Assembly: GCA_040003745.1 (NCBI GenBank)
Contig: JBDUBZ010000001.1
Span: forward strand, 1-45,003
DNA from: Terriglobia bacterium
Lineage (GTDB): Bacteria > Acidobacteriota > Terriglobia > Bryobacterales > Bryobacteraceae
Length of the DNA: 45,003 nucleotides
Direction of reading: 5' to 3'
Part shown: positions 1 to 26,201 of the stretch, one piece after another
Numbering within the stretch: the first letter of the stretch is position 1
Layout of the letters: every line of letters begins with the position of its first letter
The notes under the pieces: generated by a model
The model's database searches: none
Told to the model about the DNA's origin: nothing
What the model saw: only the letters and a program-made list of their open reading frames with translations
Position numbers and translations under genes: made by a program

Positions 1-514
1 GTTCCGACTGCGCAAAAGCCATGCCTGCGCAGACCATAACTCCTAACAACGTTGCCCTGAACGCCCCTGGACGTTTGACTGTAAACATTACGAGCTCTCC
101 TGTTCCGTTATCTTATATACTAATCGCGTCGGAAGGCAAGGAAAGTAACTGCGCCGACACAGGCAGACTCAATTTTGTAGCGCCGCAGTTCATCCACGAT
201 GAATCTGCGGATCTTTGTGTCTGGAGAAGCTGATGAAGCGGATCTTTCCCGCCTGGCGCGCTTTTCACGGCGACCCTGAGGCTGCCCTTTTCGAAGATCC
301 AGTACCAGACTCTTGGCAATCTGTGCCTTCGCGAAGAACCATCCGGCCAACCGGACACAACCTTTTCTCTTTTCTGAAGAAGCCGTGGTCAGCGACTTCA
401 GGACAATCGCTTGAGGGAGCCAAATTCCACGATCGCGAATTTTGCGAAATTGTTCCGGAGCGGGATGTTATACAGTCGGCAGCAGGGTCCAGTACTTTAA
501 AAATGGAGGAGAAG

Positions 515-1516
515 ATGAAAGTGACAGCTGGTCGATTCAGAGCTGCTTTGCTTGGGGCCGCCTTGTGCCTTTCGCCGTTGCTCGCGGCGCAGGAAGTTAG
601 TGGAAAGTGGTCGCTTGTGAATGCCACCGGGCACTTTCATCCGCGAGAGGAAGCATCCTTCGTCAGGTGTGGCGATCGTATGTATCTGCTGGGCGGCCGG
701 GGAATCGTGCCCGTGGACATTTTCGACCCTAAGACCAGGACGTGGTCGGCGGGGGCGCCGCCTCCTGTTGAAATGCATCACTTCCAGGCCGTGGCGTGGC
801 AAGGGCGCATCTACGTCGCGGGCGCCATGACGGGTAATTATCCGAGGGAGGCGCCCCTCGGCAATATCTTCATCTACGATCCAGCCAAAGACGCCTGGTC
901 CACGGGTGAGCCTGTGCCGCCCGCGCGCAGGAGAGGCGGCGCAGGCACCGTCGTCCGCGATGGAAAGCTGTACCTGACAGCGGGAATCAAAAACGGGCAC
1001 ACGGATGGCTGGGTGAATTGGTTCGACAGTTACGACTTCGCCACAAAGAAGTGGACGGAATTACCGGATGCACCCCGCGCTCGCGATCACTTTGAAGCCG
1101 CGATCATCAACGGAAAGCTTTATGCCGCCGGCGGGCGCCGTAGCTCATTCGTGACCAATCAGGTCTTTGATCTCACCATTCCGGAGATCGACGTATTCGA
1201 CTTCAGCAAAGGCAGCTGGTCGACTTTGCCGGCGAAGTGCAATCTTCCCACTCTTCGCGCAGGGGCAGGCACGGTGACGGTGGGATCGGACTTCATTGTG
1301 GTTGGCGGCGAAAGCATGAGCCATCTGCCAGCTCACTCAGAGGTCGAAGCCTTTGATACGGTGCGCCAGGTCTGGCGCTCACTGCCCAGCCTTTTGGAAG
1401 GAAGGCACGGCACTGGAACCGTCTACATGGATGGGACCCTCTACACTGCCGGCGGCGCGGGAGAGAGAGGCGGCAAGCCGCTCCTCACCTCCCTTGAGTC
1501 TCTGAAAATTCATTGA
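515..1516 (+). CDS. Secreted Kelch-repeat beta-propeller protein
   Basis: Part of ORF 215..1516. Preferred start is ATG 515, preceded by GGAGGAG (506-512). Signal-like N-terminus MKVTAGRFRAALLGAALCLSPLLAAQE. Repeated Kelch-type strands are present (MYLLGGRG, IYVAGA, LYLTAG, LYAAGGR, FIVVGGE, LYTAGG). Confidence 0.8.
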   Translation: MKVTAGRFRAALLGAALCLSPLLAAQEVSGKWSLVNATGHFHPREEASFVRCGDRMYLLGGRGIVPVDIFDPKTRTWSAGAPPPVEMHHFQAVAWQGRIYVAGAMTGNYPREAPLGNIFIYDPAKDAWSTGEPVPPARRRGGAGTVVRDGKLYLTAGIKNGHTDGWVNWFDSYDFATKKWTELPDAPRARDHFEAAIINGKLYAAGGRRSSFVTNQVFDLTIPEIDVFDFSKGSWSTLPAKCNLPTLRAGAGTVTVGSDFIVVGGESMSHLPAHSEVEAFDTVRQVWRSLPSLLEGRHGTGTVYMDGTLYTAGGAGERGGKPLLTSLESLKIH

Positions 1517-1543
1517 TTTTCCGGACTTGATTTCCGGGCTTGT

Positions 1544-4114
1544 TCAGCGCTTCACCACAACCACTACGTAAGGGGTTTCCACCTCAAGGTCGGGGTACAT
1601 TCTGCCGCCGCCGTTGCTTCCGATGGTCTCAACGAAATACATCACGTCCCAGGTGGGATTGATAAAGGAACCCGGAATCGCTCCCACATAATTTCCCGTT
1701 TTCGAGTCCAGGGTCATGTCCACGTTCAGATAGTCTTCGGTCTGGTTGACATGCCGGTATCTCAGGCGAACGGACGCCGTACCCGATGGAGCGCTGACGC
1801 GGACCGATACAGGGAAGTCCCGCCCCGGCGTGGCCGATTTTTCGGAGGTTATCTGCGCGCGAGGGGGAACGGGACTCGCAGCCATTGGCACGGCATGCAC
1901 CGATCCAGGCTTGTCCTTCGCTGCGGCGCGTTCCGCGAGAAGCTTCTCGAAATCACGGCCGAGCAGCGCGTACTCTTCTTCCCAATGACGGCTGAAACCC
2001 ACCGCATGTACGCCGAAAGCGAGGTGCTTGCTGTAGACGTCTCCCGCGGCATCCACCATTTGCTTCCACGCCTCCATCGCATGCCGTTCCGAAGCAATAG
2101 CGTCATCGAATGCGGCCAGATTGCCGGATTGCTTGTAGAGGTTATAGCTCACCCCGGCGAGAAGCCGGAACGAATGGTAGCGCGCCAGACCGGCCAGAAT
2201 CTTCAGATCCGTCGTAGTCGATAGAAATTCGTTGCCGGATCCCTTTCCGCCCGCTTTCCCGGCCTGCGCCACCTCAGACAGAATGGAATCGGCGGTTGCC
2301 GCGAACCAGCGGCTGGTCTCTTCCGGCCGGCGCATGGGTGTGGGTGTGCCGGCCAGAATGCTCTTTGCCTCATCGCGCACATTCATAAACTGCTGGATGT
2401 CGCTGCCATCCTCATTGGCGTATTGCTGGAGGCTTCCCTGCCGGTTCATCTCGGCCCAGCCGCGCGTGGTTGGAAAGTTCTGGTAGAGATAGCTGGCAGC
2501 AACAATGCGGGGCAGAACGTTGCTGGCGAGATGAAGACCTTTCATAAGATGCGCTCCGGCCGCGGGACCGAATCGACTGTCGAACTCCCGCGTCCAGACT
2601 TCCGGTTCAGCGCCGGGGTTGTAACTGACCCGGCCCCAGACCCGATAAAAATGCCAGTACCTTTCAAACTCGTAATCGTAATACCGGTCTTTGGGATTGA
2701 GAATATCGAGCGGCGGGTCGTCCTGCGGCTCGCCTAACATCTTGGTCGCGAGCATCTCATTCACTTCGAAGCTGGTGCCGTCATAGAGCCGCACCGTGCC
2801 GGCGAACCGGCGCACATATTCCGGATCGCCCCACAACAGCAGTCTGGTGGTGCCGCCATTCCAAAGCTGCCAGTGAATCCGGTAGCGCTGCGGATAGCGC
2901 AGCAGGTCGGCATAGCCGTGGCGGCGCTCCGCCTGATTCTGCGTATTGATGTGAGTTGGATGAAAGGGCATCCCCATCTGCTCCATCCAGTACTTGGTCG
3001 AGACGCGAGACTGCAGGCCGAGATCGACGGCGTCGTTGATGACCGCGTCGGGCAACTCTTTAGCGCGAAGATCGAGGCGCAGATTCGGATGATCCCGTTT
3101 GATCGCAGTAAAGACGTCGTGCCAGAACGATTGCATCTCCTCGTGCTTGAGGCCCGATTCATCGTGCATGCGGAACTGGATCGCATCCACTTCCGGGAAG
3201 ACCTCAAGAAAACGATTCAGCGCCGCTTTGGTGTAAGTCGACAGGTTGTCGGTCGTAACGCCGAAAACCAGTCCATGCACCCGCTTCCCGGCATTTTCCG
3301 AGGCGCCCGGGATGCCCCCTCCCTGTACCCCGCCGCGATAAATGTGGTCCCAGATGCCGGCCGTCACGTCGATTCCACGCTCATGCGCGATCCGGATCAT
3401 GGCTTTGAATGCCGCCACGTTCTTTGCCTGCTGCGCGGCAGTGATCCCCACCATCTCGACGCCGGTAAATCCCGGTGTGTTGAAGAAGTAGGGATATACC
3501 GGGGCCAGGAAGCCGCCGTCTTCGTAACCAAAGATCACGACGAAGCTGTTGATGCGGTCAGCCGCCAGCATGTCGAAATAGCGGGTCCAGTATCGCTCGT
3601 CGTAGAGACGCTGTTCGAAGTACGCCCGCTGCATCGTGTAGGTGGAAATGCCGCGCTCTGCGATGTAGGGCGTCTCCAATATGTCGTGCACAGATTGAAA
3701 GGGATCTGCACCGGTTGATGCGGAGATCTTCTCGGCGGTATCGATGGCCGCGTACATTAGCCCCCGGGAATCGCCGCCGGCAAGAACGACTGCCGGGATG
3801 CCATTGATGCGCCCGCGCCAGGCCGCGAGTGCTTCCGGACCTTTGGGCATAACCGCGCCCCGGCCCTTGATCGCGCGGGCGGCAGTTTCGGCGGCAGACC
3901 CGCCCACTACGATCTGGAACTTGGCGCCTTTCGGGCTGTCGATAATCTCGAACCCCCTGGCCTGAACTGCCTGGCGCAACACCTCCACACCGTGCGAGGC
4001 GGGCAGGCCCGTATTGCCATCGGTCAAAATCGCGACCTTTTGAGCGGCTGCCAGAGGCAGACCGGCCATCGAAAGATAGATCGCCGCGAACCGGATTCTT
4101 GAAAAGAATTGCAT
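1544..4114 (-). CDS. Secreted glycoside-hydrolase-like protein (family not assignable by eye)
   Basis: 856 aa ORF with a signal peptide (MQFFSRIRFAAIYLSMAGLPLAAAQ). The N-terminal domain has a GDSRGLMYAAIDTAEKI motif reminiscent of GH20b/GH67N-type domains. The central region looks like a TIM barrel. It lies 32 nt downstream of the mutarotase-lactonase gene on the same strand. Confidence 0.6.
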   Translation of the reverse strand: MQFFSRIRFAAIYLSMAGLPLAAAQKVAILTDGNTGLPASHGVEVLRQAVQARGFEIIDSPKGAKFQIVVGGSAAETAARAIKGRGAVMPKGPEALAAWRGRINGIPAVVLAGGDSRGLMYAAIDTAEKISASTGADPFQSVHDILETPYIAERGISTYTMQRAYFEQRLYDERYWTRYFDMLAADRINSFVVIFGYEDGGFLAPVYPYFFNTPGFTGVEMVGITAAQQAKNVAAFKAMIRIAHERGIDVTAGIWDHIYRGGVQGGGIPGASENAGKRVHGLVFGVTTDNLSTYTKAALNRFLEVFPEVDAIQFRMHDESGLKHEEMQSFWHDVFTAIKRDHPNLRLDLRAKELPDAVINDAVDLGLQSRVSTKYWMEQMGMPFHPTHINTQNQAERRHGYADLLRYPQRYRIHWQLWNGGTTRLLLWGDPEYVRRFAGTVRLYDGTSFEVNEMLATKMLGEPQDDPPLDILNPKDRYYDYEFERYWHFYRVWGRVSYNPGAEPEVWTREFDSRFGPAAGAHLMKGLHLASNVLPRIVAASYLYQNFPTTRGWAEMNRQGSLQQYANEDGSDIQQFMNVRDEAKSILAGTPTPMRRPEETSRWFAATADSILSEVAQAGKAGGKGSGNEFLSTTTDLKILAGLARYHSFRLLAGVSYNLYKQSGNLAAFDDAIASERHAMEAWKQMVDAAGDVYSKHLAFGVHAVGFSRHWEEEYALLGRDFEKLLAERAAAKDKPGSVHAVPMAASPVPPRAQITSEKSATPGRDFPVSVRVSAPSGTASVRLRYRHVNQTEDYLNVDMTLDSKTGNYVGAIPGSFINPTWDVMYFVETIGSNGGGRMYPDLEVETPYVVVVVKR

Positions 4115-4146
4115 GTAAACACCTCCGCGCGAATTTGTAACTTATA

Positions 4147-6027
4147 TCAATACTGCAGTGAACCTCGATCCGGTATGCGGACGCTGTAGACAGAGGTTCG
4201 GGCCGTCACGTATAGCGTCTTGAGATCGGAACCGCCGAACGCACAATTGGCGGGAGTTTCCGGGAAGTCAATCGTGCGCAGAATTTTCCCGGCGGGGGAA
4301 TAGACGGCGATCCCTTTTGCCGCTATATACAGGTTCCCGTTTTCGGCCACCCGGAGACCGTCGGGCGTGCCTTCGATGCCGGAGATGAAGACACGCTCCC
4401 TCGACGCGTCACCCCTGCCGTCCAGATCCCAGGCCAGGATCTTGCGTTCTTCGGAATCGGCGATGTAAAGTGTGCGGCCGTCGGGTGTGAGCGCGACGCC
4501 GTTGGGCCGTCCCATTTTTTGAGTGATCAGCGACAGCTTGCCGTCCGGCGAAATGTGGTAAACCCCGTTGAAGCTGAGTTCCTGAGGCTCGAGGACGGCT
4601 TTCGAAGCGGGGTCGGTAAAGTAGACGTGTCCGTCGCGCCGGACGACGATATCGTTAGGGGAATTGAGGCGCTTGCCCTGCCATTCCGAGGCGAGGACGG
4701 TTACGGAGCCGTCCTTTTCCATGCGGGAAATACGCCGGCCGTCACGCTCGGCGGAGTAGAGGCGGCCTTGCGAATCCATGGAGTTGCCATTCGCGGCATT
4801 GGTGTAGTTGCGATAGATTTCGGGGCTGGATGAGCCGGCGATCTTCATGATCCGCGAGTTGTAGATATCGCTGAAGATGAGAAAACCTTGTTTCGACCAA
4901 ACCGGCCCTTCGACGAAGGCGAAATCCCCGCCGACCTTCTCGATCCCGGCGGCGGGGGCAGGTGGCGCAGCCGTATCGACCTGGAGTTCAAGACGCCACT
5001 TCCAATCCCTGCCCGGCTGGAGTTTCACAGCGCCCTGGCCGGAATTGAGCGAGTTTTGGATGCCGAAAATCGGCTCCGGGCAGAAATAGCCGGCTTTAGG
5101 GCCGCCATAGAGATTGAAGCGGACCAGCGGCTCGCCAAGGGTGGAACTGGCCTGTTGGGTCAGGCGCAGCGAGACGCCCTGGGGATCGACAAGCCGGGCA
5201 TAGGGCTGACTGCGGTACCCGCCCATGGGCAGGGCTGTGACGGCGTCGAAATCGCCGAGGGCCACCGGCGTCTGGAAAGAGCGCGGCTTCCGCTCGCCGT
5301 TCAGGAGACCCTTGTCGTTCCGCATCATCTGGATAGTGGACGCGGTTTCGAGCGTCATTTTTCCAGGGTCGGTGCCCTTCACGAATGGCACGTTGAAGGC
5401 GATATGGTTCCCGATGGAAAACGGCATTTCGACCTTATTGGAGCTATCCGAAGTGATCTTGTAGTCGATGGTCAGATGACCGCCTGAGAGTTCGTAGCTG
5501 GCGGTGACGCGGAACGCGAACGGGTAGGACGGGCGGGTCTGTTCGGAGTCGCGCAGTTCCACCGTGACGCGCGCGCCGGACTGGTCGGCGGAACGGGAGA
5601 CTTCCTTCCAGGGAAGATTTTTGGCGAACCCGTGGCAGGGCATCTCGTAGGCCTTGCCGCCGGATGACCAGGTGCCCGGACCACAACTGTTGGCGGGGAC
5701 CGTGCCGACGGGGTATTGCGCGCCGAAGGCCGGCCAGATGAGCGGGCCTTTACCGGCAAAACCGGAGCTCGAATAGTCGCGCGCGCGGTAGAGAAATTCG
5801 GTCCACTCGCCCTTCACGCGGACTCGGTAGCTGGCCAGTTCTCCGCCCTTCGATGGGGTTACCGCAGCTTCGACACCTGCCACAACATCGCGCAGTACGA
5901 CGACTTCAGGGGAGCCGGGCCCGGCAGCAAGCTCGTCGGAGACCGTGTAGCGGATTTGGGCCGGCAGGGGCAGTGCTGCCAAAAAAAGTGCCGCGGGCAA
6001 AAGCCTGTTCACGTTCAGATAACTCAT
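4147..6027 (-). CDS. Secreted fusion protein: galactose-mutarotase-like (aldose 1-epimerase) domain plus SMP-30/gluconolactonase/LRE-like beta-propeller
   Basis: Signal peptide MSYLNVNRLLPAALFLAALPLPAQ. The N-terminal half carries LacX/aldose-epimerase-type motifs (PCHGFAKNLPW, YPFAFRV, SIGNHIAFNVP). The C-terminal half carries gluconolactonase-type motifs (VEGPVWSKQGFLIFSD, LNSPNDIVV, RPNGVALTPDGRTLYIADS). Its start overlaps the PQQ gene stop as ATGA (6024-6027). Confidence 0.8.
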   Translation of the reverse strand: MSYLNVNRLLPAALFLAALPLPAQIRYTVSDELAAGPGSPEVVVLRDVVAGVEAAVTPSKGGELASYRVRVKGEWTEFLYRARDYSSSGFAGKGPLIWPAFGAQYPVGTVPANSCGPGTWSSGGKAYEMPCHGFAKNLPWKEVSRSADQSGARVTVELRDSEQTRPSYPFAFRVTASYELSGGHLTIDYKITSDSSNKVEMPFSIGNHIAFNVPFVKGTDPGKMTLETASTIQMMRNDKGLLNGERKPRSFQTPVALGDFDAVTALPMGGYRSQPYARLVDPQGVSLRLTQQASSTLGEPLVRFNLYGGPKAGYFCPEPIFGIQNSLNSGQGAVKLQPGRDWKWRLELQVDTAAPPAPAAGIEKVGGDFAFVEGPVWSKQGFLIFSDIYNSRIMKIAGSSSPEIYRNYTNAANGNSMDSQGRLYSAERDGRRISRMEKDGSVTVLASEWQGKRLNSPNDIVVRRDGHVYFTDPASKAVLEPQELSFNGVYHISPDGKLSLITQKMGRPNGVALTPDGRTLYIADSEERKILAWDLDGRGDASRERVFISGIEGTPDGLRVAENGNLYIAAKGIAVYSPAGKILRTIDFPETPANCAFGGSDLKTLYVTARTSVYSVRIPDRGSLQY

Positions 6028-7616
6028 TTCTTAATCGCTCTGGGCTCGAAGAGGCTGAAGCCGATGATGTCGCCACCGGCCGCAAGCCCGACGTATTGTT
6101 TCCCGTCCACCGTGTAAGTGATCGGCTGAGCCGAGATCGGCTGGCCGGTGTAGAAGTGCCACAGGGTCTCGCCGGTCTTCGAATCATAGGCTACGAATTC
6201 GCCGTTCAGCTCGGCCGAAAAGAGCAGTCCGCCCGCAGTTGAGAGCAATCCGCCCCCGAAACCAGTCGAGCCGATGCGTTCCATCTCCCACCTGAGCTTG
6301 CCGGTGGTGAGATCCAGCGCCCGGACGTAGACTTTCCAGGAGTCGTCGCGGATCTCCACGTCGCCGGTGGCGCGGTATTGGAAACCGCCCGGCCGGAACG
6401 TCTCGGTGGATTTGTTGGCCAGGCCACAACCTTCCTGCGCGACCACGTAGAACAGGCCTGTATCCGGGCTATAGGCCGGAGACTGCCAATTCGCCGCGCC
6501 AATGGCGGAGGGGCAAACAACCGTACCCTTCAGAGAGGGCTCAATACCGGGAATGCGGATGGGCCGGCCCTCCGCGGTCAATCCGCTGGCCCAGTTCATG
6601 TGCTGCACAAACGGGGTGCCGGTGAGGAACTTTCCATTGGTGCGGTCAAGCAGATAGTAGAAGCCGTTGCGGTCGGCATGCGCCATCAGCTTGCGCATTT
6701 TTCCCTGGTAAGGTGCGTCCACGAGGATGGGGACTTCGACGGCGTCCCAGTCCATGGTGTCGTGAGGTGTGAACTGGAAATACCATCTCAGACGACCGGT
6801 GTCCAGATCGAGCGCGACGACGGATTCGGTGTAAAGGTTGTCGCCAATCCGGACGTCGCCGTTGAAATCCGGCGCCGGGTTGCCGATACCCCAGTAAAGG
6901 AGGTTGAGTTCGGGATCGTAGCTGCCGGTGAGCCAGGTATTACCACCCGCGGACTTCCAGGAATCGCCGGGCCATGTGTCGCTGCCGGGCTCGCCGGGGC
7001 GCGGGATGGGATTGAAGCGCCAGAGCCGCTCGCCGGTGGTGGCGTCATACGCGTCGAGAAAGCCGTTCAGACCGTGGTCGCCGGGGGCGGAACCGGCGAT
7101 GACCTTGCCGTTAACCACGAGGGGAGCGCCAGGGGACCAGTAGCCGTCGCTTGCCTCGGCCAGTTTGGCCTCCCACACAACGTTGCCGCTACCCGCATTG
7201 AGGGCAATCAGATGCGCGTCGGGCGTAGTGACATAAACCTTGTCCTTCCACACGGCAACGCCGCGGTTGGGCCCTTTCTGGATTGCCGGGATGCGGTGGT
7301 ATTCCCAGATTTGGCGACCGGTGCGGGCGTCAACGGCGTAAACCTCGTTTGGCTGGCTCACATACATGACGCCATCGACCACGATGGGCACGGTCTGGAG
7401 GCGGCTCGCGCCGGGGACGTGATAGATCCACCTGGGGACGAGCCCGTCGATGGTCGCGGTGTTGACCTGTTTGAGCGAAGAGTGGCGGCGGCTGTCGTAA
7501 CTGCCGTTGTATGAAAGCCAGTTGGCGGGATTGGCGTCCCTCAACTGGACATCGGTGACCTGTGCTTCGAGCGCCGCCGCCAGGAGCCCGAGGGCTGCAA
7601 CGATGCGGATGATCAT
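6024..7616 (-). CDS. PQQ-dependent dehydrogenase (quinoprotein, methanol/ethanol-dehydrogenase-like propeller)
   Basis: 530 aa with a signal peptide. Typical quinoprotein N-terminus (ANWLSYNGSYDSRRHSSL). Also has GGNTWLTGSYDPELNLLYWGIGNPAPD and TPHDTMDWDAV motifs and repeated W-containing blades. Its start overlaps the cytochrome c stop as ATGA (7613-7616). Confidence 0.85.
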   Translation of the reverse strand: MIIRIVAALGLLAAALEAQVTDVQLRDANPANWLSYNGSYDSRRHSSLKQVNTATIDGLVPRWIYHVPGASRLQTVPIVVDGVMYVSQPNEVYAVDARTGRQIWEYHRIPAIQKGPNRGVAVWKDKVYVTTPDAHLIALNAGSGNVVWEAKLAEASDGYWSPGAPLVVNGKVIAGSAPGDHGLNGFLDAYDATTGERLWRFNPIPRPGEPGSDTWPGDSWKSAGGNTWLTGSYDPELNLLYWGIGNPAPDFNGDVRIGDNLYTESVVALDLDTGRLRWYFQFTPHDTMDWDAVEVPILVDAPYQGKMRKLMAHADRNGFYYLLDRTNGKFLTGTPFVQHMNWASGLTAEGRPIRIPGIEPSLKGTVVCPSAIGAANWQSPAYSPDTGLFYVVAQEGCGLANKSTETFRPGGFQYRATGDVEIRDDSWKVYVRALDLTTGKLRWEMERIGSTGFGGGLLSTAGGLLFSAELNGEFVAYDSKTGETLWHFYTGQPISAQPITYTVDGKQYVGLAAGGDIIGFSLFEPRAIKK

Positions 7617-8425
7617 CGGCCCACCTCATTTTCGCCCTGCCATGTAATCTTCACTTTGGTGCGCGCCTGGACGGCGAGCATGGCCACCAGGTCCCGGTAT
7701 TGGGCCGGGGTCAACTTCTTGTCGTAATCGTGAGGCATGAGTGACTTATCGGCGTAGACGATGCCGCGGAGCCGGGCAGTGTCGAGCAGGTGCAGTTTGC
7801 CCTGCGCGTCGAGAACCTGCAGCGAGAAGGCGTCCCGGTTGCGCGCGATGCCGGTGATCTTTTCGCCCGTGGCGGTGGTCGCGGTGACAGGGCGATAGCC
7901 ATTAGGAATGGGGCGTTCTCTGGTGAGGGCGTCGCGGATCCGGTTAAGGTTGAGCTGCGCGCCGATGCTGGACAGGTCGGGCCCGATGATACCGCCCTGT
8001 CCACGGATCATGTGGCACTGGACGCAGCCCCCCGCGCCATTGAAAACGCTCATGCCGTTTGGAACGCTGCCTGGCACCACGAGGTCCGACGCGGTTGCCC
8101 GAATGGCCCGGATGAAGGTGACAATCTTCCAGATGTCGTTGTCGGGCAGGCCGGAGGCGGGCATAACCGTACCGGGAATGCCCGCTTTGAGCGTTTCGAA
8201 AATGGCCGCCTCGCTGACTCGGAAGTAGCGGCGGTTGCCGTCAAGGCCCGGGGCGCGGTCGCCATCGGCGCCGTCCGGCCCGTGGCAGCCAGTGCACGAC
8301 CGGTTGTAGATGAGACGGCCGGCCTCGGCGACCTGGGGCGAGTCGCCGAGCGGATTGGCCGGCTTGCGGATCTGGGCACTGGCAGCCGCCAGCACCAGCG
8401 TAGTCAGCAGAACAAAGAGTTTCAT
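7613..8425 (-). CDS. Dihaem c-type cytochrome, periplasmic
   Basis: Two CXXCH motifs (CTGCH, CVQCH). Signal peptide MKLFVLLTTLVLAAASAQ. The ORF track starts at TTG 8431, but ATG 8425 (MKLF...) is preferred. It is the first gene of the coupled cytochrome c / PQQ-DH / lactonase operon. Confidence 0.8.
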   Translation of the reverse strand: MKLFVLLTTLVLAAASAQIRKPANPLGDSPQVAEAGRLIYNRSCTGCHGPDGADGDRAPGLDGNRRYFRVSEAAIFETLKAGIPGTVMPASGLPDNDIWKIVTFIRAIRATASDLVVPGSVPNGMSVFNGAGGCVQCHMIRGQGGIIGPDLSSIGAQLNLNRIRDALTRERPIPNGYRPVTATTATGEKITGIARNRDAFSLQVLDAQGKLHLLDTARLRGIVYADKSLMPHDYDKKLTPAQYRDLVAMLAVQARTKVKITWQGENEVGR

Positions 8426-8429
8426 CGTC

Positions 8430-8457
8430 AAAAGCGCAAAGGGCGCGGTCCCGCGCC
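8430..8457. repeat. 28-nt GCGC-block motif, copy 1 (AAAAGCGCAAAGGGCGCGGTCCCGCGCC)
   Basis: Matches 14064-14091 at 26 of 28 positions. Lies 5 nt upstream of the cytochrome c ATG. Contains the inverted repeat GGCGCG/CGCGCC. Confidence 0.6.
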
Positions 8458-8648
8458 GCCAAAGATAAAAGATAGAAGATAAAGGATCTCACGGATCGGG
8501 GGCGCCGGGGCCGCGAATCCACGACCTCGTTGCCACGCCATTCGAGCGTGTTCTTGGCAATCCTTAAACAACGGCAGCCAGGATGTCTTCAACCTCTGTC
8601 TCTACTCAGAGATATAATATTGTAAGCAGCGCAGAAGCTCACTAATTC

Positions 8649-8717
8649 ATGAATTCTCAGATTCACGACATAGGCATTAACACGGCGGTGGCGATTATTA
8701 TCGCCAGCTCCGCCTGA
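8649..8717 (+). promoter_or_regulatory. Ile-rich leader peptide ORF (MNSQIHDIGINTAVAIIIASSA) of an ilvA attenuator
   Basis: 22-codon ORF with 6 Ile, including three consecutive Ile codons (att att atc, 8694-8702). It ends 42 nt before a strong intrinsic terminator and sits directly upstream of ilvA. Confidence 0.6.
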
Positions 8718-8759
8718 GCCAGCCTGCGAATCGAGACATTTCGTTTCACAAGTAGTTGG

Positions 8760-8797
8760 GCCCCAGACGGACTTCGGTTCGCTCTGGGGCTTTTTTT
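8760..8797 (+). terminator. Intrinsic terminator (attenuator) upstream of ilvA
   Basis: GCCCCAGA (8760-8767) pairs with TCTGGGGC (8783-8790). An inner CGGAC/GTTCG helix surrounds a TTCG loop. The hairpin is followed by TTTTTTT (8791-8797). Confidence 0.75.
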
Positions 8798-8819
8798 ATT
8801 TCCACCGCAGGAGAGACAG

Positions 8820-8855
8820 ATGAAGACGACCACTTACGCGAGGCCACCCGCATGA
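8820..8855 (+). promoter_or_regulatory. Possible 11-codon upstream ORF (MKTTTYARPPA) overlapping the ilvA start
   Basis: ATG 8820 is preceded by AGGAGAG (8809-8815). It has three consecutive Thr codons. Its stop TGA (8853-8855) overlaps the ilvA ATGATG (8852-8857). It could be coincidental. Confidence 0.3.
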
Positions 8856-10060
8856 TGAATCTGGAAAGAATCGAAGCGGCTGCGCACCGGATCGGCGGTT
8901 CGATCAAAAAGTCTCAGCTCGCATATTCGGCCGCGCTCTCGCGACTTTGCGGCAATGAAATTTACCTGAAACTTGAGAACTCCCAGATGACCGGCTCGTT
9001 CAAGGAAAGAGGTGCTCTTAACCGAATTCTTTCCCTGAGCGACGTAGAGCGCAGTCGCGGTGTGATTGCCGCATCGGCTGGTAACCACGGTCAGGGAGTA
9101 GCTTTTCATTCGATGCTTCGTGGAATCCGTGCGGAGATTTGGATGCCCCGCTCCACACCTCTTGTCAAAGTGACGGCGACCCGTGGATACGGCGCGGAAG
9201 TTGTGTTGCACGGCGCTAACTACGACGAAGCCTACGAGGCCGCACTGGAACGGTGTGCGCAACTAAATGCCACCTTCCTCCATGCCTTCGACGACGAGGA
9301 TGTCATCGCAGGTCAGGGAACCATCGGTTTGGAAATGCTGGATCAGGAACCGACCCTCGACGTTATCGTGGCGCCGATCGGTGGTGGAGGGCTCATTGCC
9401 GGAATCGCGTGCGCCGTGAAGGAACTTCGCCCCAACGTCGAAATAGTTGGAGTGCAGACGGCGCGACTCCCTTCCATGAACGCTGCGTTGGATCACGGGG
9501 AGCCGGTTACTATTCCTGCCGAACCGACTCTTGCGGACGGGATCGCCGTCCGCAAAGTCGGGAAGCTCACCCTGCCCTTGGTTGCGCACCATGTCGATAA
9601 GATCGTTACGGTCGAAGAAGAAGAAATCGCAGCGGCCATTCTGGTTCTATTAGAGCGGGAGAAAACGCTCGCCGAAGGTGCCGGGGCCGTAGCCCTTGCG
9701 GCTGTTCTTCAAGGTTGCACCGGTCATCGGGGAAAGAAGGTTGGGGTAGTGGTTTCCGGCGGCAATCTGGACGTGAACCTGCTCGCGAGAATCATTGAGC
9801 GCGGTTTGGTCCGGGACGGACGCCGTCTCAGGCTCCGCGTAAAACTACCCGACTACCCAGGCGCGCTGGAAGGTTTGGCCTCCGTTATCGCAAGGGTGAA
9901 CGCGAACATTGTAGAGACGCAACACAATCGGGCACACTATGGCGTCAGTCTAAGTGAAACAGCCATCGACATCACAATGGAGACTCGCGGTCGCGATCAT
10001 GCGGAAGAAGTGCGTGCCGCGCTCGCCGAGGGTCAATATCAATTTAGTGTTGTGGAGTGA
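8852..10060 (+). CDS. ilvA: Threonine ammonia-lyase (threonine dehydratase) with C-terminal ACT-like regulatory domain
   Basis: PLP-enzyme motifs are present (LENSQMTGSFKERGA, ASAGNHGQGVA, GGGGLIAG). Start chosen at MMNLERIEAA (8852/8855). The track ORF start 8756 would read through the terminator hairpin. GAGG (8840-8843) is a possible SD. Confidence 0.85.
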   Translation: MMNLERIEAAAHRIGGSIKKSQLAYSAALSRLCGNEIYLKLENSQMTGSFKERGALNRILSLSDVERSRGVIAASAGNHGQGVAFHSMLRGIRAEIWMPRSTPLVKVTATRGYGAEVVLHGANYDEAYEAALERCAQLNATFLHAFDDEDVIAGQGTIGLEMLDQEPTLDVIVAPIGGGGLIAGIACAVKELRPNVEIVGVQTARLPSMNAALDHGEPVTIPAEPTLADGIAVRKVGKLTLPLVAHHVDKIVTVEEEEIAAAILVLLEREKTLAEGAGAVALAAVLQGCTGHRGKKVGVVVSGGNLDVNLLARIIERGLVRDGRRLRLRVKLPDYPGALEGLASVIARVNANIVETQHNRAHYGVSLSETAIDITMETRGRDHAEEVRAALAEGQYQFSVVE

Positions 10061-12076: not shown

Positions 12077-12893
12077 TCAGTTTTCCGTCGGAATCCGCTC
12101 CATCCGATCGATGACCAGCATCCGGAGCGGCAGCATTTTCAGTGTCACTTTCAGGCCCAGTTGCTTTTCCACCGCCTTCAGCAATTCACTTGGGTCCGGC
12201 CTGTTCTCCGGGACATCCGTCGGTGCGCTCAGCTCAATGTCATAGTTTCCCTGGATACCGGTCGCGTCCAGCAGCGGGCGATCCAGAATGTGCGTGGCGT
12301 CGATGGCCTCGAGGAAGCCGGTGACCGTCAGCCCAGACGGCGCTCCGCCGAGCTGACTACTGAAATGCCACAGGCCGGCTTCGGTTTTCGTGGTGTACTT
12401 CGGGAAGTCGGTCGCCGGTGCCGGGCTTTTCGCTGCCCGCAGCTTCGAACCCTGTTCGGAAACCCGCACTTCGAACGCCTTCAGGCCACGCGTTTCCCAG
12501 TGTGTGACCAGTCCGAAACGGGTCGCGAGCAGATCCTGAAACATTAGATTCAGCAGCTCCGAACTCGTATCGCGAGGGAAGATGACCGAAACATCGTAGC
12601 CACGCGAGCCGCGCTGCGCGGCGACCCATGCAGGCCAGACGATCTTATAGTCCGGCAATCGCCAGGCCCTGCAGACCAGGTGCTTAATGCTCGCCTTGCG
12701 AAGATCGACCCGAGTCGGATCGTATCGCGTGAACGGCCGATCGCCCGACTCGTTGACTTTGACAAGACGCGGCATCGAATTGCGGCCGCCCGGTCTCGCT
12801 TTGAGCAAAACCGCTTCCGGGCAGCAACGCGCACATTGCCAGAGCGAAACGAATCGAAACCGGCGAGACACGGGCAGCGGGTTTGCGGTTCAT
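12077..12893 (-). pseudogene. TIGR03435-family (Acidobacteria paralogous family) protein, apparent single-base frameshift
   Basis: The C-terminus LLKAVEKQLGLKVTLKMLPLRMLVIDRMERIPTEN is typical of TIGR03435. The signal peptide and RPQFDAAS lie in one frame (ORF 12684..12917, from MNRK at 12893). The body (VKVNESGDRP...) lies in another frame. Removing one T of the TT pair (plus-strand AA at 12764-12765) restores FDAASVKVNES. Confidence 0.6.
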
Positions 12894-23089: not shown

Positions 23090-23414
23090 AATGCTTCGGA
23101 CGTAGCGGCGCACGCCCTCCTTCAATTCCCTCAGGCTTCGTGGCGGCGGATCCTTTGTTCAACAGTGCCGTATGTATGTCCGCTGAACTGAGTGTCCCAG
23201 CGCGCCTGACGAACATCCTGTCACCCTCTTCTTCCCATTTGAGAACAGACCCGGGGCCCACGCCGAACTTCCGCCGGACAGCGGCCGGAATCGAAATCTG
23301 GCCCTGCGCCGTGACTCTGGGTTGCGCAACCGTGATAACCAATATCACCCCGGTAATGCGCAGCTTAGCTGCGGCTGCCCGCCCTCCCGGTTGATACAGT
23401 TGAAGTGAATCCAT
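22926..23414 (-). CDS. vapB: AbrB/SpoVT-type antitoxin (VapB-like) with anomalous 3' end
   Basis: The swapped-hairpin DNA-binding motif RVTAQGQISIPAAVRRKFGVGPGSVLKWEEEGDRMFVRR is clear. As an intact ORF it runs 164 nt into vapC in another frame. The expected antitoxin C-terminal motif (SLRELKEGVRRYVRS) is encoded in the vapC frame instead. The start is uncertain (ATG 23414 or GTG 23348). Confidence 0.5.
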   Translation of the reverse strand: MDSLQLYQPGGRAAAAKLRITGVILVITVAQPRVTAQGQISIPAAVRRKFGVGPGSVLKWEEEGDRMFVRRAGTLSSADIHTALLNKGSAATKPEGIEGGRAPLRPKHYARNRHQCAGAVDRQRRFPPDRRRRGIRSTGSMGFRSRTGRSGLGARQRLRVGS

Positions 23415-24843
23415 GACCTTTTCCGATTCCTTTTTCGCCGGCAAATTCGGCATCTCCAGCCGGGATCTGGAAAACTATCTCGCCGAGGCTCTCTCCCGCG
23501 GCGGCGACTATGCCGACCTCTATTTCGAGTATCTTGCCACCAGTTCCATCAGCATCGATGAATCGATCGTCAAGAGCGCCACGCAGGGTGTTTCGCTGGG
23601 CGTGGGCGTGCGCGTGATCGCCGGTGAGCGCACCGGTTACGCCTACTCGGACGACCTGAGCCCCGAGAAGATCAAACATGCCGCGCAGGTTGCCGCCATG
23701 ATTGCTTCCGGCCCCGCGAAGACGGATAAAGTCGGTCTGCATGAGGGCCCGAAGCGCAACCTGTACCCCGTTGTGACCGCGCCGAATGAGACGGCTTTCA
23801 AGGAGCGCGTGGAACTGGCCCAGCGCGCCGATCGGGCCGCGCGCGGCTATGACCCGAGAATCTTCCAGGTGCAGGTCACCTACGCCGACAATCTGCGAGA
23901 AGTCCTTGTCGCCACGAGCGAGGGTGTCCTGAATTTCGATCGCCAGCCACTTGCCCGCATCGGCGTCCTGGTTCTGGCGCGCGAGGGAGAGGCCGCTCCT
24001 CAACAGGGCCATGCAGGGGGCGGAGGGCGCTACGAACTCGACTGGTTCCGCAACGAGCGGACTCCCGAATACTTCGCAACCGAAGCCGCCCGTCAGGCGA
24101 TCGTCCAGCTCCATGCCACCGACGCCCCGGCGGGCGAGCAGATCGTGGTCCTTGGACCCGGCTGGCCTGGAGTGCTTTTACATGAAGCGGTAGGCCACGG
24201 CCTCGAAGCCGACTTCAATCGCAAAGGTGTTTCGGCCTTCAGCGGACGTGTGGGGCAGCAGGTGGCGAGCCCGCTTTGCACCGTGGTCGACGACGGCACT
24301 ATCGGCGGGCGGCGCGGCTCTTTGAATGTGGATGACGAAGGCAATGAAACGCAGCGCAATGTCCTGATCGAAAACGGAATCCTGCGCGGCTACCTGCAGG
24401 ACAACCTTTCAAGCCGCATCCTCAAGACCGCGCCAACGGGCAGCGGACGCCGCGAGGGTTACGAGCACATCCCCATGCCGCGTATGACCAATACGTTTAT
24501 GCTCGCCGGCGAAAGCGATCCCGCCGATATTATCCGGTCGGTTCCGCGCGGGCTCTACTGTGCGAACTTCGGCGGCGGCTCGGTCGATATCACGAGCGGC
24601 AACTTCGTCTTTTCCGCTTCGGAAAGCTACCTGATCGAAGACGGAAAACTTACGCGGCCGGTGCGTAACGCCACGCTGATCGGCAATGGTCCCGAGGCGA
24701 TGAAATACGTCAGCATGGTGGGCAACGATCTGAAACTGGATGAAGGCGTCGGCATCTGCGGCAAGGAAGGCCAGAGCGTTCCTGTGGGCGTGGGCATTCC
24801 CACCGTGCGCATCGATCGCATGACCGTCGGGGGAACCGCTTGA
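23413..24843 (+). CDS. tldD: Metalloprotease TldD
   Basis: 476 aa. HEAVGHGLEADF zinc motif and a C-terminal GxC..GQS region typical of TldD. Confidence 0.85.
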   Translation: MTFSDSFFAGKFGISSRDLENYLAEALSRGGDYADLYFEYLATSSISIDESIVKSATQGVSLGVGVRVIAGERTGYAYSDDLSPEKIKHAAQVAAMIASGPAKTDKVGLHEGPKRNLYPVVTAPNETAFKERVELAQRADRAARGYDPRIFQVQVTYADNLREVLVATSEGVLNFDRQPLARIGVLVLAREGEAAPQQGHAGGGGRYELDWFRNERTPEYFATEAARQAIVQLHATDAPAGEQIVVLGPGWPGVLLHEAVGHGLEADFNRKGVSAFSGRVGQQVASPLCTVVDDGTIGGRRGSLNVDDEGNETQRNVLIENGILRGYLQDNLSSRILKTAPTGSGRREGYEHIPMPRMTNTFMLAGESDPADIIRSVPRGLYCANFGGGSVDITSGNFVFSASESYLIEDGKLTRPVRNATLIGNGPEAMKYVSMVGNDLKLDEGVGICGKEGQSVPVGVGIPTVRIDRMTVGGTA

Positions 24844-26201
24844 GCGGCTTGCGTTTCGACGCGCTGCCCGAACTCGCGCAGGGCGTGATCCGGCAGGCAC
24901 TGGCGGCGGGTGCGAGTGACGCGGAGTGCACCATTTCCGAGGGCACCGAATTTTCCGCCAGCGTGCGCATGGGCGAAGTGGAAACGCTGAAAGAGGCGGG
25001 GTCGCGCGGCGCCGGTCTGCGCGTGCTCATCGGCCGCCGCATGGGAGCTTCCTATACCTCCGACCTCAGCGCGGAAGGCATTCGGCATATGGTGAATTCG
25101 GCCATCGACCTGGCTTCAGTGACCACTGAAGATCCTCATGCGTCGCTGCCCGATGTGGATGAGCTCGGTTCCATCGACGCCGATCTGCGGCTTTTTTCCG
25201 AAGACGTCGCCGGTCTCGATACCGAGAAGAAAATCGATGCCGCGCGCCGCGCCGAAGCCGCGGCTCTGGCCTATGACCCGCTCATCGCGAATTCCGAAGG
25301 GGGCTCATTCGACTCCCATATCGGCGGGCGCGCCTTTGCGAATTCACGCGGTTTCACCGGCGCGTACCGGGGCACGTACTGTTCCGTTTCCGCCGTCCCG
25401 GTCGCCGTGAGAGACGGCGCGATGGAGCGGGATTACTGGTCGACGCTCGCGCGCGATTTCGCGGGCCTCGAAAACTTCGAAGAAGTAGGCCGGATTGCGG
25501 CCCGGCGCGCCCTGCGCCGTCTGGGCGCCGTCAAAGTAGAGACGCAGCGCGTGCCCATCATCTTCGAACCGCGCGTGGCCCGCACCCTGCTCGGCAATCT
25601 GTTCGAGGCCGTCGAGGGCCGTTCCATCTATCGTCAGGCGTCGTTCTTAGCGGGCAGGCTGGGCGAGAAGATTGCCGACGAGCGCATCACGTTAATCGAC
25701 GATGGCACGATTCCGCGCCTGTTTGGTTCCCAGCCCTTTGACGATGAAGGCGTGCCTACGCGCCGCACGCCGGTGATTGAGCGTGGCGTGCTGAAGAACT
25801 ACCTGCTGAATACCTACACGGCGCGCAAACTGGGCATGAAAACGACCGGCAATGCGTCCCGGGGCATCACCGGCAACGCGGGTATCGGGCACGGCAATTT
25901 CTTTCTCGAAAAGGGGAGCAAGTCTCCCGAAGAGATCCTGCGCAGTGTGAAGAACGGTCTTTTTGTGACGGAACTGATTGGCGACGGAGTCAATACCGTC
26001 ACAGGCGATTATTCGCGCGGAGCCGTTGGCATGTGGATACGCGATGGGGAACTGGCCTTCCCGGTTTCGGAGATCACCATCGCCTCCACATTGCAGCAGA
26101 TGCTGAACGGTATTGCGGAGATTGGCAGCGACCTGGAGTTCCGCGGGTCCGTCAGCGCCCCGACCATCATGATCGGAGAGATGACCGTTGCAGGACGTTA
26201 A
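24840..26201 (+). CDS. pmbA: TldD/PmbA-family protein (PmbA/TldE partner)
   Basis: 453 aa with family similarity but no HExxxH. The TTG start overlaps the tldD stop (TTGA, 24840-24843). Confidence 0.8.
   Translation: MSGLRFDALPELAQGVIRQALAAGASDAECTISEGTEFSASVRMGEVETLKEAGSRGAGLRVLIGRRMGASYTSDLSAEGIRHMVNSAIDLASVTTEDPHASLPDVDELGSIDADLRLFSEDVAGLDTEKKIDAARRAEAAALAYDPLIANSEGGSFDSHIGGRAFANSRGFTGAYRGTYCSVSAVPVAVRDGAMERDYWSTLARDFAGLENFEEVGRIAARRALRRLGAVKVETQRVPIIFEPRVARTLLGNLFEAVEGRSIYRQASFLAGRLGEKIADERITLIDDGTIPRLFGSQPFDDEGVPTRRTPVIERGVLKNYLLNTYTARKLGMKTTGNASRGITGNAGIGHGNFFLEKGSKSPEEILRSVKNGLFVTELIGDGVNTVTGDYSRGAVGMWIRDGELAFPVSEITIASTLQQMLNGIAEIGSDLEFRGSVSAPTIMIGEMTVAGR

Follow-up and report, generated by a model that had tools for sequence, protein, structure and literature searches.

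A pyrroloquinoline quinone dehydrogenase without the Cys-Cys ring, coupled to a dihaem cytochrome c and a mutarotase-lactonase: a candidate periplasmic sugar-oxidation module with a plausible lanthanide site in an acidobacterium

We analysed a 45,003-nucleotide stretch of DNA from a Terriglobia bacterium (contig JBDUBZ010000001.1, positions 1 to 45,003; hereafter, the window) that carries on its minus strand four consecutive genes encoding a cytochrome c (272 aa), a pyrroloquinoline quinone (PQQ) dehydrogenase (530 aa), a 626-aa protein and an 856-aa protein. The N-termini of all four proteins are signal-peptide-like. An initial annotation of the locus had described the dehydrogenase gene as translationally coupled, through an ATGA sequence, to the gene for an upstream dihaem cytochrome c. 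The overlap is indeed present (7616..7613), as are two CxxCH motifs in the cytochrome, and a second ATGA joins the dehydrogenase gene to the gene of the 626-aa protein, a fusion of aldose 1-epimerase (mutarotase) and gluconolactonase domains. The features of the operon are as follows:

7613..8431, minus strand: dihaem cytochrome c, 272 aa, with a signal peptide; TTG start at 8431, alternative ATG at 8425
8282..8296, minus strand: haem-binding motif 1 of the cytochrome, CTGCH (C46-H50), a CxxCH motif
8012..8026, minus strand: haem-binding motif 2 of the cytochrome, CVQCH (C136-H140), a CxxCH motif
7613..7616, minus strand: ATGA, cytochrome stop over PQQ dehydrogenase start (read from the sequence)
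6024..7616, minus strand: PQQ-dependent eight-bladed propeller dehydrogenase, 530 aa, signal peptide at about residues 1-18 (profiles and AF2 fold)
7248..7292, minus strand: loop I109-W123, IPAIQKGPNRGVAVW, in which the Cys-Cys ring is deleted and which holds the PQQ-binding R118 (alignment)
7077..7079, minus strand: D180, an Asp where MxaF has its metal-binding Glu, E177 (alignment)
6879..6881, minus strand: N246, the metal-binding Asn (MxaF N261; alignment, invariant)
6744..6752, minus strand: D289-W290-D291, the catalytic base Asp and an Asp in the lanthanide-ligand register of PedH/XoxF (alignment, invariant)
6669..6671, minus strand: R316, the active-site Arg (MxaF R331; alignment, invariant)
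6426..6515, minus strand: C368 and C397, opposite C386/C415 of MxaF, its distal and non-vicinal pair; both invariant
6027..6024, minus strand: ATGA, PQQ dehydrogenase stop over mutarotase-lactonase start (read from the sequence)
4147..6027, minus strand: secreted fusion of aldose 1-epimerase and SMP-30/gluconolactonase, 626 aa (PF01263, PF08450)
5002..5895, minus strand: aldose 1-epimerase domain, about residues 45-342 (PF01263, E 3e-18)
4162..4947, minus strand: SMP-30/gluconolactonase domain, about residues 361-622 (PF08450, E 7e-50)
1544..4114, minus strand: secreted 856-aa protein, 32 nt downstream of the 626-aa gene on the same strand (no Pfam match)

The 530-aa protein passed the cut-offs of PF01011 (E 2.3e-86, 291 bits against 26.7) and of the methanol/ethanol dehydrogenase family TIGR03075 (507.3 bits against 480.05). 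Its top-scoring model was TIGR04528 ('acido-empty-quinoprotein group A'), matched over the full length with 563.8 bits, under the cut-off of 650. Because ten relatives, including the orthologue P0032, also scored below this cut-off (413-573 bits), we place the protein in a sister group of TIGR04528 rather than within it; the likeness is to acidobacterial quinoprotein homologues, and the model itself carries no function. The score against TIGR03074, the model of the membrane-bound glucose, quinate and shikimate dehydrogenases, was 188.5 bits for a cut-off of 832.65, and the N-terminus has an 18-residue signal-like stretch before the propeller and no multi-span membrane domain. PedH (6zcv) was the closest sequence match in the PDB (HMMER, E 5e-104). 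An AF2 model (pLDDT 84.7, pTM 0.85) predicted an ordinary eight-bladed propeller, which Foldseek aligned to PedH, alcohol dehydrogenase (ADH) II, XoxF and MxaF with template-modelling (TM) scores of 0.82-0.85, the top match being PedH (0.85).

A scan of 1.84 billion representative proteins retrieved 42,897 relatives, the best 150 of which (P0121-P0270) were examined as representatives; 144 cover the active site. Conservation was scored in 58 close homologues, and the family tree held 80 sequences, the query and those from 79 related loci. In neighbour-joining (NJ) trees, the query clade was apart from MxaF/XoxF, PedH/ExaA, ADH IIB, the sorbose-dehydrogenase group and the membrane glucose dehydrogenase (mGDH), inside a large group without any characterized member. 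It thus fell outside both the XoxF clade and type 2b, and it did not group with the known Ca-type enzymes, as the initial annotation had allowed that it might. The tree and the sub-threshold match to TIGR04528 agree with the earlier view of a poorly characterized quinoprotein clade. No published PQQ-ADH 'type' with a description that could be matched to the features of this clade was found, the type schemes of Keltjens 2014 and Huang 2019 lying outside the comparison. By profile, tree and modelled fold, the dehydrogenase is a soluble eight-bladed PQQ quinoprotein of an uncharacterized acidobacterial clade, near TIGR04528 but below its cut-off.

The active-site stretch TPHDTMDWDAV begins at residue 283 and the codons of D289-W290-D291 lie at 6752..6744, exactly where they had been placed earlier. 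The initial annotation had also aligned the second Asp by eye with the lanthanide ligand of XoxF-type enzymes, and this register was reproduced by HMMER and by MAFFT L-INS-i. In the HMMER alignment to PedH (6zcv), 'tphdtmdwdavev' stands opposite 'tphdgwdfdgvne' without a gap, and a 4-residue deletion in the query falls exactly over 'pccd'. The MAFFT alignment contained MxaF (1h4i, 599/599 residues matched), ExaA (1flg), ADH IIB (1kb0), an annotated XoxF5 and PedH (6zcv), along with sorbose dehydrogenase (4mh1), the Pseudogluconobacter PQQ-ADH (PsADH, 4cvb) and Escherichia coli Gcd. Its motif column reads D-Y-A in MxaF (D303/A305), D-F-S in ExaA, D-Y-T in ADH IIB, D-F-D in PedH, D-Y-D in XoxF5 and D-W-D in the query. 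All three residues are invariant, both in the close homologues (58/58) and in the sequences of the family tree (80/80); judged from these alignments, the D-W-D motif is not a chance occurrence.

The loop equivalent to the Cys-Cys ring of the methanol and ethanol dehydrogenases is also real and, as proposed, has no Cys pair; its coordinates, approximated earlier as 'about 7260-7292', are more exactly 7248..7292 (residues 109-123). There is no CC dipeptide in the protein, the only cysteines being C368 and C397. The ring is present in all of the methanol and ethanol references that we aligned and missing in the query, in mGDH and in the sorbose-dehydrogenase group, and R118, within the loop, is invariant among the close homologues. 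The other residues expected to contact PQQ or to participate in catalysis are likewise kept and invariant, so that R118, W228, N246, D289, R316 and N376 match R109, W243, N261, D303, R331 and N394 of MxaF, and MxaF E177 is conservatively replaced by D180. This Asp in place of the canonical Glu ligand was overlooked in the initial annotation. It is invariant in 58/58 homologues, leaving the Asn (N246) but not the Glu of the Glu-plus-Asn ligand set of lanthanide enzymes. Among 138 representatives, the ring was kept in 54 proteins with Glu and 9 with Asp, and was missing from 44 with Asp and 22 with Glu. Loss of the ring therefore goes with the Asp ligand (Fisher p 1e-9, uncorrected for phylogeny), and the D180 switch that accompanies ring loss is, as a sequence character, more informative than D-x-D.

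A Sinorhizobium fredii plasmid protein, the best annotated plasmid match (43% identity), was rejected as a relative. It is a cytochrome c-PQQ fusion with a retained CC ring and for this reason represents a different subfamily. On plasmid psfSMH12a of S. fredii SMH12 (L001), the unannotated fusion open reading frame (ORF) spans 5380-7566 and combines the Cys-Cys ring with D-W-D; the PLSDB record of the plasmid is essentially without a gene table. As a lead only, polyvinyl-alcohol dehydrogenase, which has an N-terminal haem domain, might be the nearest characterized relative of the wider D-W-D group.

The cytochrome encoded upstream combines a class I haem domain (residues 35-109, matching Cytochrome_CBB3/Cytochrom_C) with a second region (residues 124-253; window 7673-8062, minus strand) that matches TIGR02603, 'putative heme-binding domain', with 69.3 bits against a cut-off of 68.15. 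It has weak matches to cytochrome cL, to PedF and to a 'hypothetical dihaem protein' in the PDB (7zs0), and it scored well under the cut-offs of the models for the monohaem partners XoxG (cL) and PedF (c550): 31.1 against 147.8 bits for TIGR03872 (MoxG) and 24.8 against 122 bits for TIGR04494 (PedF). A homologue of this cytochrome adjoins the PQQ gene in ~74/82 related loci, down to 46% identity of the PQQ protein; the loci are mostly from Bryobacterales/Solibacteraceae, with some from Gemmatimonadota and Vicinamibacterales. In the fusion protein P0123 (762 aa), the N-terminal 240 aa are a dihaem module with 36% identity to the cytochrome (E 2e-39), and N-terminal extensions with CxxCH occur in 39 of the nearest representatives, with two motifs in 9 and one in 30. 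Because the two genes are neighbours in most loci and the two proteins are fused in relatives, strong genomic evidence points to the dihaem cytochrome as the predicted electron acceptor of the dehydrogenase. The second haem module is not typical of the known partner cytochromes of quinoproteins. Dihaem N-terminal fusions were seen mostly in ring-less proteins (8 vs 1; uncorrected for phylogeny).

The downstream gene bears on the substrate, which the initial annotation had expected not to be a simple alcohol. In support of this, one monophyletic subclade conserves a cassette of cytochrome, PQQ dehydrogenase and aldose epimerase, the last with or without a lactonase. At 13 loci an epimerase gene, again with or without lactonase, comes after the PQQ gene, and the full-length matches from these loci group with the query in a single clade. 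The nearest PDB structures to the lactonase domain are the exported gluconolactonases 3dr2 and 3e5z. P0048 (794 aa) joins a PQQ dehydrogenase to a lactonase domain 65% identical to that in the window, and P0062 (789 aa) is made up of the same domains. The coupling of dehydrogenase and gluconolactonase-type enzyme that a periplasmic aldose-oxidation module would require was, then, found at three levels: in the ATGA overlap, in the 13 loci and in the fusions. In some relatives (L005), the epimerase is a stand-alone protein.

Given that an epimerase(-lactonase) adjoins the dehydrogenase, that a lactonase is fused to it in P0048, that the lactonase domain is gluconolactonase-like and that the ring is also absent from the sugar-oxidizing mGDH, sorbose dehydrogenase and PsADH, the protein is probably a soluble, cytochrome-c-linked aldose-to-aldonolactone dehydrogenase, and the three coupled genes would constitute a periplasmic sugar-oxidation module. 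The analysis directly establishes the structure of the genes, the fold, the conserved residues, the register of the alignment, the neighbourhood and the domain fusions; we infer the class of substrate, which way the electrons flow, which metal is bound and that PQQ is acquired by some route. In the proposed pathway, the mutarotase domain would anomerize free periplasmic aldose to the correct anomer, the anomeric C1-OH of which the PQQ enzyme would oxidize to the aldonolactone with D289 as the base. A metal held by D180, N246, D291 and PQQ itself would polarize the C5 carbonyl of PQQ. The lactonase domain would then hydrolyse the lactone to the aldonate, and the dihaem cytochrome c would re-oxidize the reduced PQQ in two one-electron steps and pass the electrons to the respiratory chain.

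Several observations weigh against this interpretation. Sequence scores favour the alcohol dehydrogenases (PedH, 352 bits) over known sugar enzymes (4mh1, 212 bits; TIGR03074, 188 bits), the clade of the protein has no assayed member and our trees are NJ trees, distance-based only. A sister clade (60-67% identity) has the same cytochrome but no epimerase-lactonase, and its neighbours are varied (an FMN (flavin mononucleotide) dehydrogenase, a GH88 and a CBM9-cytochrome fusion), so substrates may differ even among close relatives. No particular sugar can be named from the evidence. In addition, the residue equivalent to MxaF W476 is a Gly, and the name of TIGR04528 records a curator's doubt about the supply of PQQ in these organisms.

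The last two points belong to a reading in which the propeller is 'empty': the protein would bind no PQQ, because the organism could not make it, and would have another role. The closest model in NCBIfam bears the name acido_non_PQQ / acido-empty-quinoprotein, and a Pfam scan found no pqq biosynthesis genes among the 34 predicted proteins of the window. Yet most of the residues in contact with PQQ are invariant, as are the catalytic Asp and the ligands of the metal, the protein has its own conserved cytochrome c partner, in some relatives fused to it, and many Gram-negative bacteria scavenge PQQ rather than synthesize it (PMC12124388). We therefore regard a non-PQQ role as very improbable.

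The sequence similarities also bear on whether the protein is a PedH/ExaF-like dehydrogenase of volatile alcohols or aldehydes that happens to have a functionally unrelated mutarotase-lactonase neighbour. PedH, the type II ADHs and XoxF are its best matches in sequence and structure, the cut-off of the methanol/ethanol family was passed and the sugar genes are missing from the sister clade. Such a chance association is difficult to reconcile with the stop/start overlap with the mutarotase-lactonase gene, with the conservation of this neighbour throughout the query's own subclade and with the homologues in which the lactonase is physically joined to the dehydrogenase. Furthermore, the query lacks the Cys-Cys ring found in every characterized alcohol enzyme that we aligned and did not cluster with PedH/ExaA in the NJ tree. 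An alcohol or aldehyde substrate thus appears unlikely, and we favour sugar oxidation.

In two sister-clade loci, the place of the epimerase-lactonase downstream is taken by a gene for an FMN-dependent dehydrogenase or by a GH88-like one (L017, 8511-9761; L046, 9043-10260). In a third (L013, 4200-6980), a 926-aa ORF upstream of the PQQ gene encodes a cytochrome c fused to a CBM9-like carbohydrate-binding domain, which hints at electron transfer linked to polysaccharides in that clade. The 856-aa protein of the window matched the alpha-D-galacturonidase model NF049878 (E 7.5e-8) over its N-terminal 170 residues only, and the GH138 structure 6hzf with an E value of 0.7; its one counterpart among the related loci is in L008 (73% identity), L026 giving a weak match. 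It is possibly a distant GH138-like glycosidase, and it is uncertain that it belongs to the module. Because the GH138-like match is weak and the gene occurs in a single related locus, we rejected it as evidence for naming the sugar.

With the lanthanide-dependent type 2b ethanol dehydrogenases PedH/ExaF (6zcv), the query shares ~36% identity, the eight-bladed PQQ propeller (TM 0.85) and, all in the same register, the catalytic Asp, the Asn ligand, the Arg and the additional Asp, as well as a periplasmic location and a cytochrome c acceptor, the latter predicted for the query. It differs in the missing Cys-Cys ring, the Asp in place of the Glu ligand and its separate NJ clade. Its partner is a 272-aa dihaem cytochrome and not the monohaem c550 PedF, and its operon has a mutarotase-lactonase instead of aldehyde-handling genes. 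The type II quinohaemoprotein ADHs (1kb0, 1kv9, 1yiq) similarly combine a PQQ propeller with a c-type haem, as do those relatives of the query with a fused cytochrome. However, the haem domain of these ADHs is single and C-terminal, whereas that of the query is a separate dihaem protein, N-terminal in the fusions, and they have the CC ring and the D-Y-T motif of the Ca type.

With the mGDH of E. coli (Gcd), the query shares the predicted periplasmic aldose-to-aldonolactone chemistry, the lack of the Cys-Cys ring and D-x-D, and at the position of the Glu ligand the MAFFT alignment sets Gcd D354-N355 opposite query G179-D180. The two are only ~25% identical, the query has no N-terminal membrane domain, and the electron acceptor of Gcd is ubiquinone, in place of the cytochrome c partner of the query. 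L-sorbose dehydrogenase (4mh1) and PsADH (4cvb) are, like the query, soluble periplasmic eight-bladed proteins without the Cys-Cys ring, and they act on sugars; they differ in their low identity to it (25-27%), separate clade and D-x-E motif, and lack both the Glu/Asp and the Asn ligand at the aligned positions. The six-bladed soluble aldose dehydrogenases of the sGDH and Asd-YliI type are functional analogues, also soluble periplasmic PQQ enzymes, of a different fold (six blades as opposed to eight). Many six-bladed PQQ propeller proteins are predicted, in a 2026 preprint, to bind lanthanides, and some to pair with dihaem cytochromes (bioRxiv 10.64898/2026.07.10.737718).

The initial annotation had treated D-x-D as the hallmark of lanthanide dependence. 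Its register was correct, but in this part of the family the motif is the default state and does not discriminate: it occurs in ~128/144 nearest representatives (~89%), with or without the Cys-Cys ring or the Glu ligand, in 79/79 related genomic loci and in E. coli Gcd (D466-M-D468 in the MAFFT alignment). The E. coli enzyme is reported to accept Ca, Mg, Zn or Sr as its metal; the presence of D-x-D in it is explicitly noted by Voutsinos et al. (PMC11996626). Because the motif is nearly universal among the relatives and present in a Ca/Mg enzyme, lanthanide use is plausible only; D-x-D makes it possible without establishing it. The metal site, with three predicted carboxylates, would be compatible with a trivalent lanthanide, but a lanthanide and Ca/Mg cannot be told apart by sequence.

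That the enzyme is genuinely lanthanide-dependent, with D291 binding La, Ce or Nd as D325 does in PedH (6zcv chain numbering), and acts on sugars has, in our view, a little less than an even chance of being correct. D291 is invariant and in the same register as the lanthanide-binding Asp, which is essential in XoxF1 and ExaF, both of which are inactivated by its mutation (bioRxiv 10.1101/2020.02.25.964783). A Gly precedes the first ligand, as in PedH and XoxF5, where MxaF, ADH IIB and ExaA have Ala or Asp, and in bulk surveys most clades of this kind, among them putative acidobacterial glucose and sorbose dehydrogenases, are predicted to use lanthanides (PMC11996626). Tempering these arguments, the motif persists in the neighbouring representatives whatever else changes in the site, and it is found in an mGDH that functions with Ca or Mg. 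Because the Glu ligand is a shorter Asp, the geometry of the site is not that of XoxF/PedH. Neither TonB receptors nor lanthanide-handling genes, such as those for lanthanide uptake or lanmodulin-like proteins, were detected by Pfam among the 34 predicted proteins of the window. Further, lanthanide use has been confirmed experimentally only for the XoxF clades and type 2b ADHs, eleven other families being predicted, untested users (bioRxiv 10.64898/2026.07.10.737718).

Alternatively, the same chemistry could run with a divalent metal, Ca or Mg, as in mGDH, D-x-D being ancestral and mute on lanthanides; this is a serious possibility, to which we give somewhat lower than even odds. The near-universality of the motif across very diverse relatives is consistent with it, as is Gcd, a Ca/Mg enzyme despite its D466-M-D468 and its D354-N355 over query G179-D180, and soil Ca is far more available than lanthanides. 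Yet the extra Asp accompanies lanthanides wherever it has been tested (XoxF, ExaF and PedH), the characterized Ca enzymes have Ala, Ser or Thr in its place (MxaF, ExaA and ADH IIB, respectively), and XoxF1 loaded with Ca is almost inactive (bioRxiv 10.1101/2020.02.25.964783).

The prediction, from the motif, of lanthanide-dependent sugar dehydrogenases in Acidobacteria has already been published (PMC11996626), and NCBI holds a model of the sister family. The combination for which we found no earlier description is that of ring loss and the Glu-to-Asp switch with a dedicated, sometimes fused, dihaem cytochrome and translational coupling to a mutarotase-lactonase. It is conceivable, if rather doubtful, that this clade of ring-less soluble aldose dehydrogenases, with an Asp/Asn/Asp metal site and a dedicated dihaem cytochrome c, would provide the first lanthanide-dependent enzyme shown to act on carbohydrates. 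If so, rare-earth availability would be linked to the breakdown of sugars by Acidobacteria that are abundant in soil and that need to scavenge PQQ as well, and the paired ring loss and Glu-to-Asp switch would represent a distinct design of electron transfer and metal site in the quinoprotein family. Surveys extend the prediction of lanthanide use, by the same Asp motif, to most environmental PQQ dehydrogenases, putative sugar enzymes included. The operon is a compact case with a clear context (its own cytochrome, mutarotase and lactonase) in which to ask whether, beyond the alcohol clades, the metal can be read from the motif, and it bears on the role of lanthanides in the carbohydrate turnover of soil Acidobacteria. 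Should the enzyme depend on Ca/Mg, motif-based 'lanthanome' counts would be inflated. The operon is, in this sense, less a surprise than a well-suited case for experiment.

A promoter and terminator scan of positions 1-9200 was uninformative, because the sites were no more numerous than in shuffled sequence, and Rfam and tRNA scans of the window returned nothing. Three further features of the window have no evident link to the PQQ operon: a Kelch-repeat propeller protein convergent with it (215-1516, plus strand), a DUF3738 protein (12077-12871, minus strand) and a TldD/PmbA metallopeptidase pair (23413-26201, plus strand).

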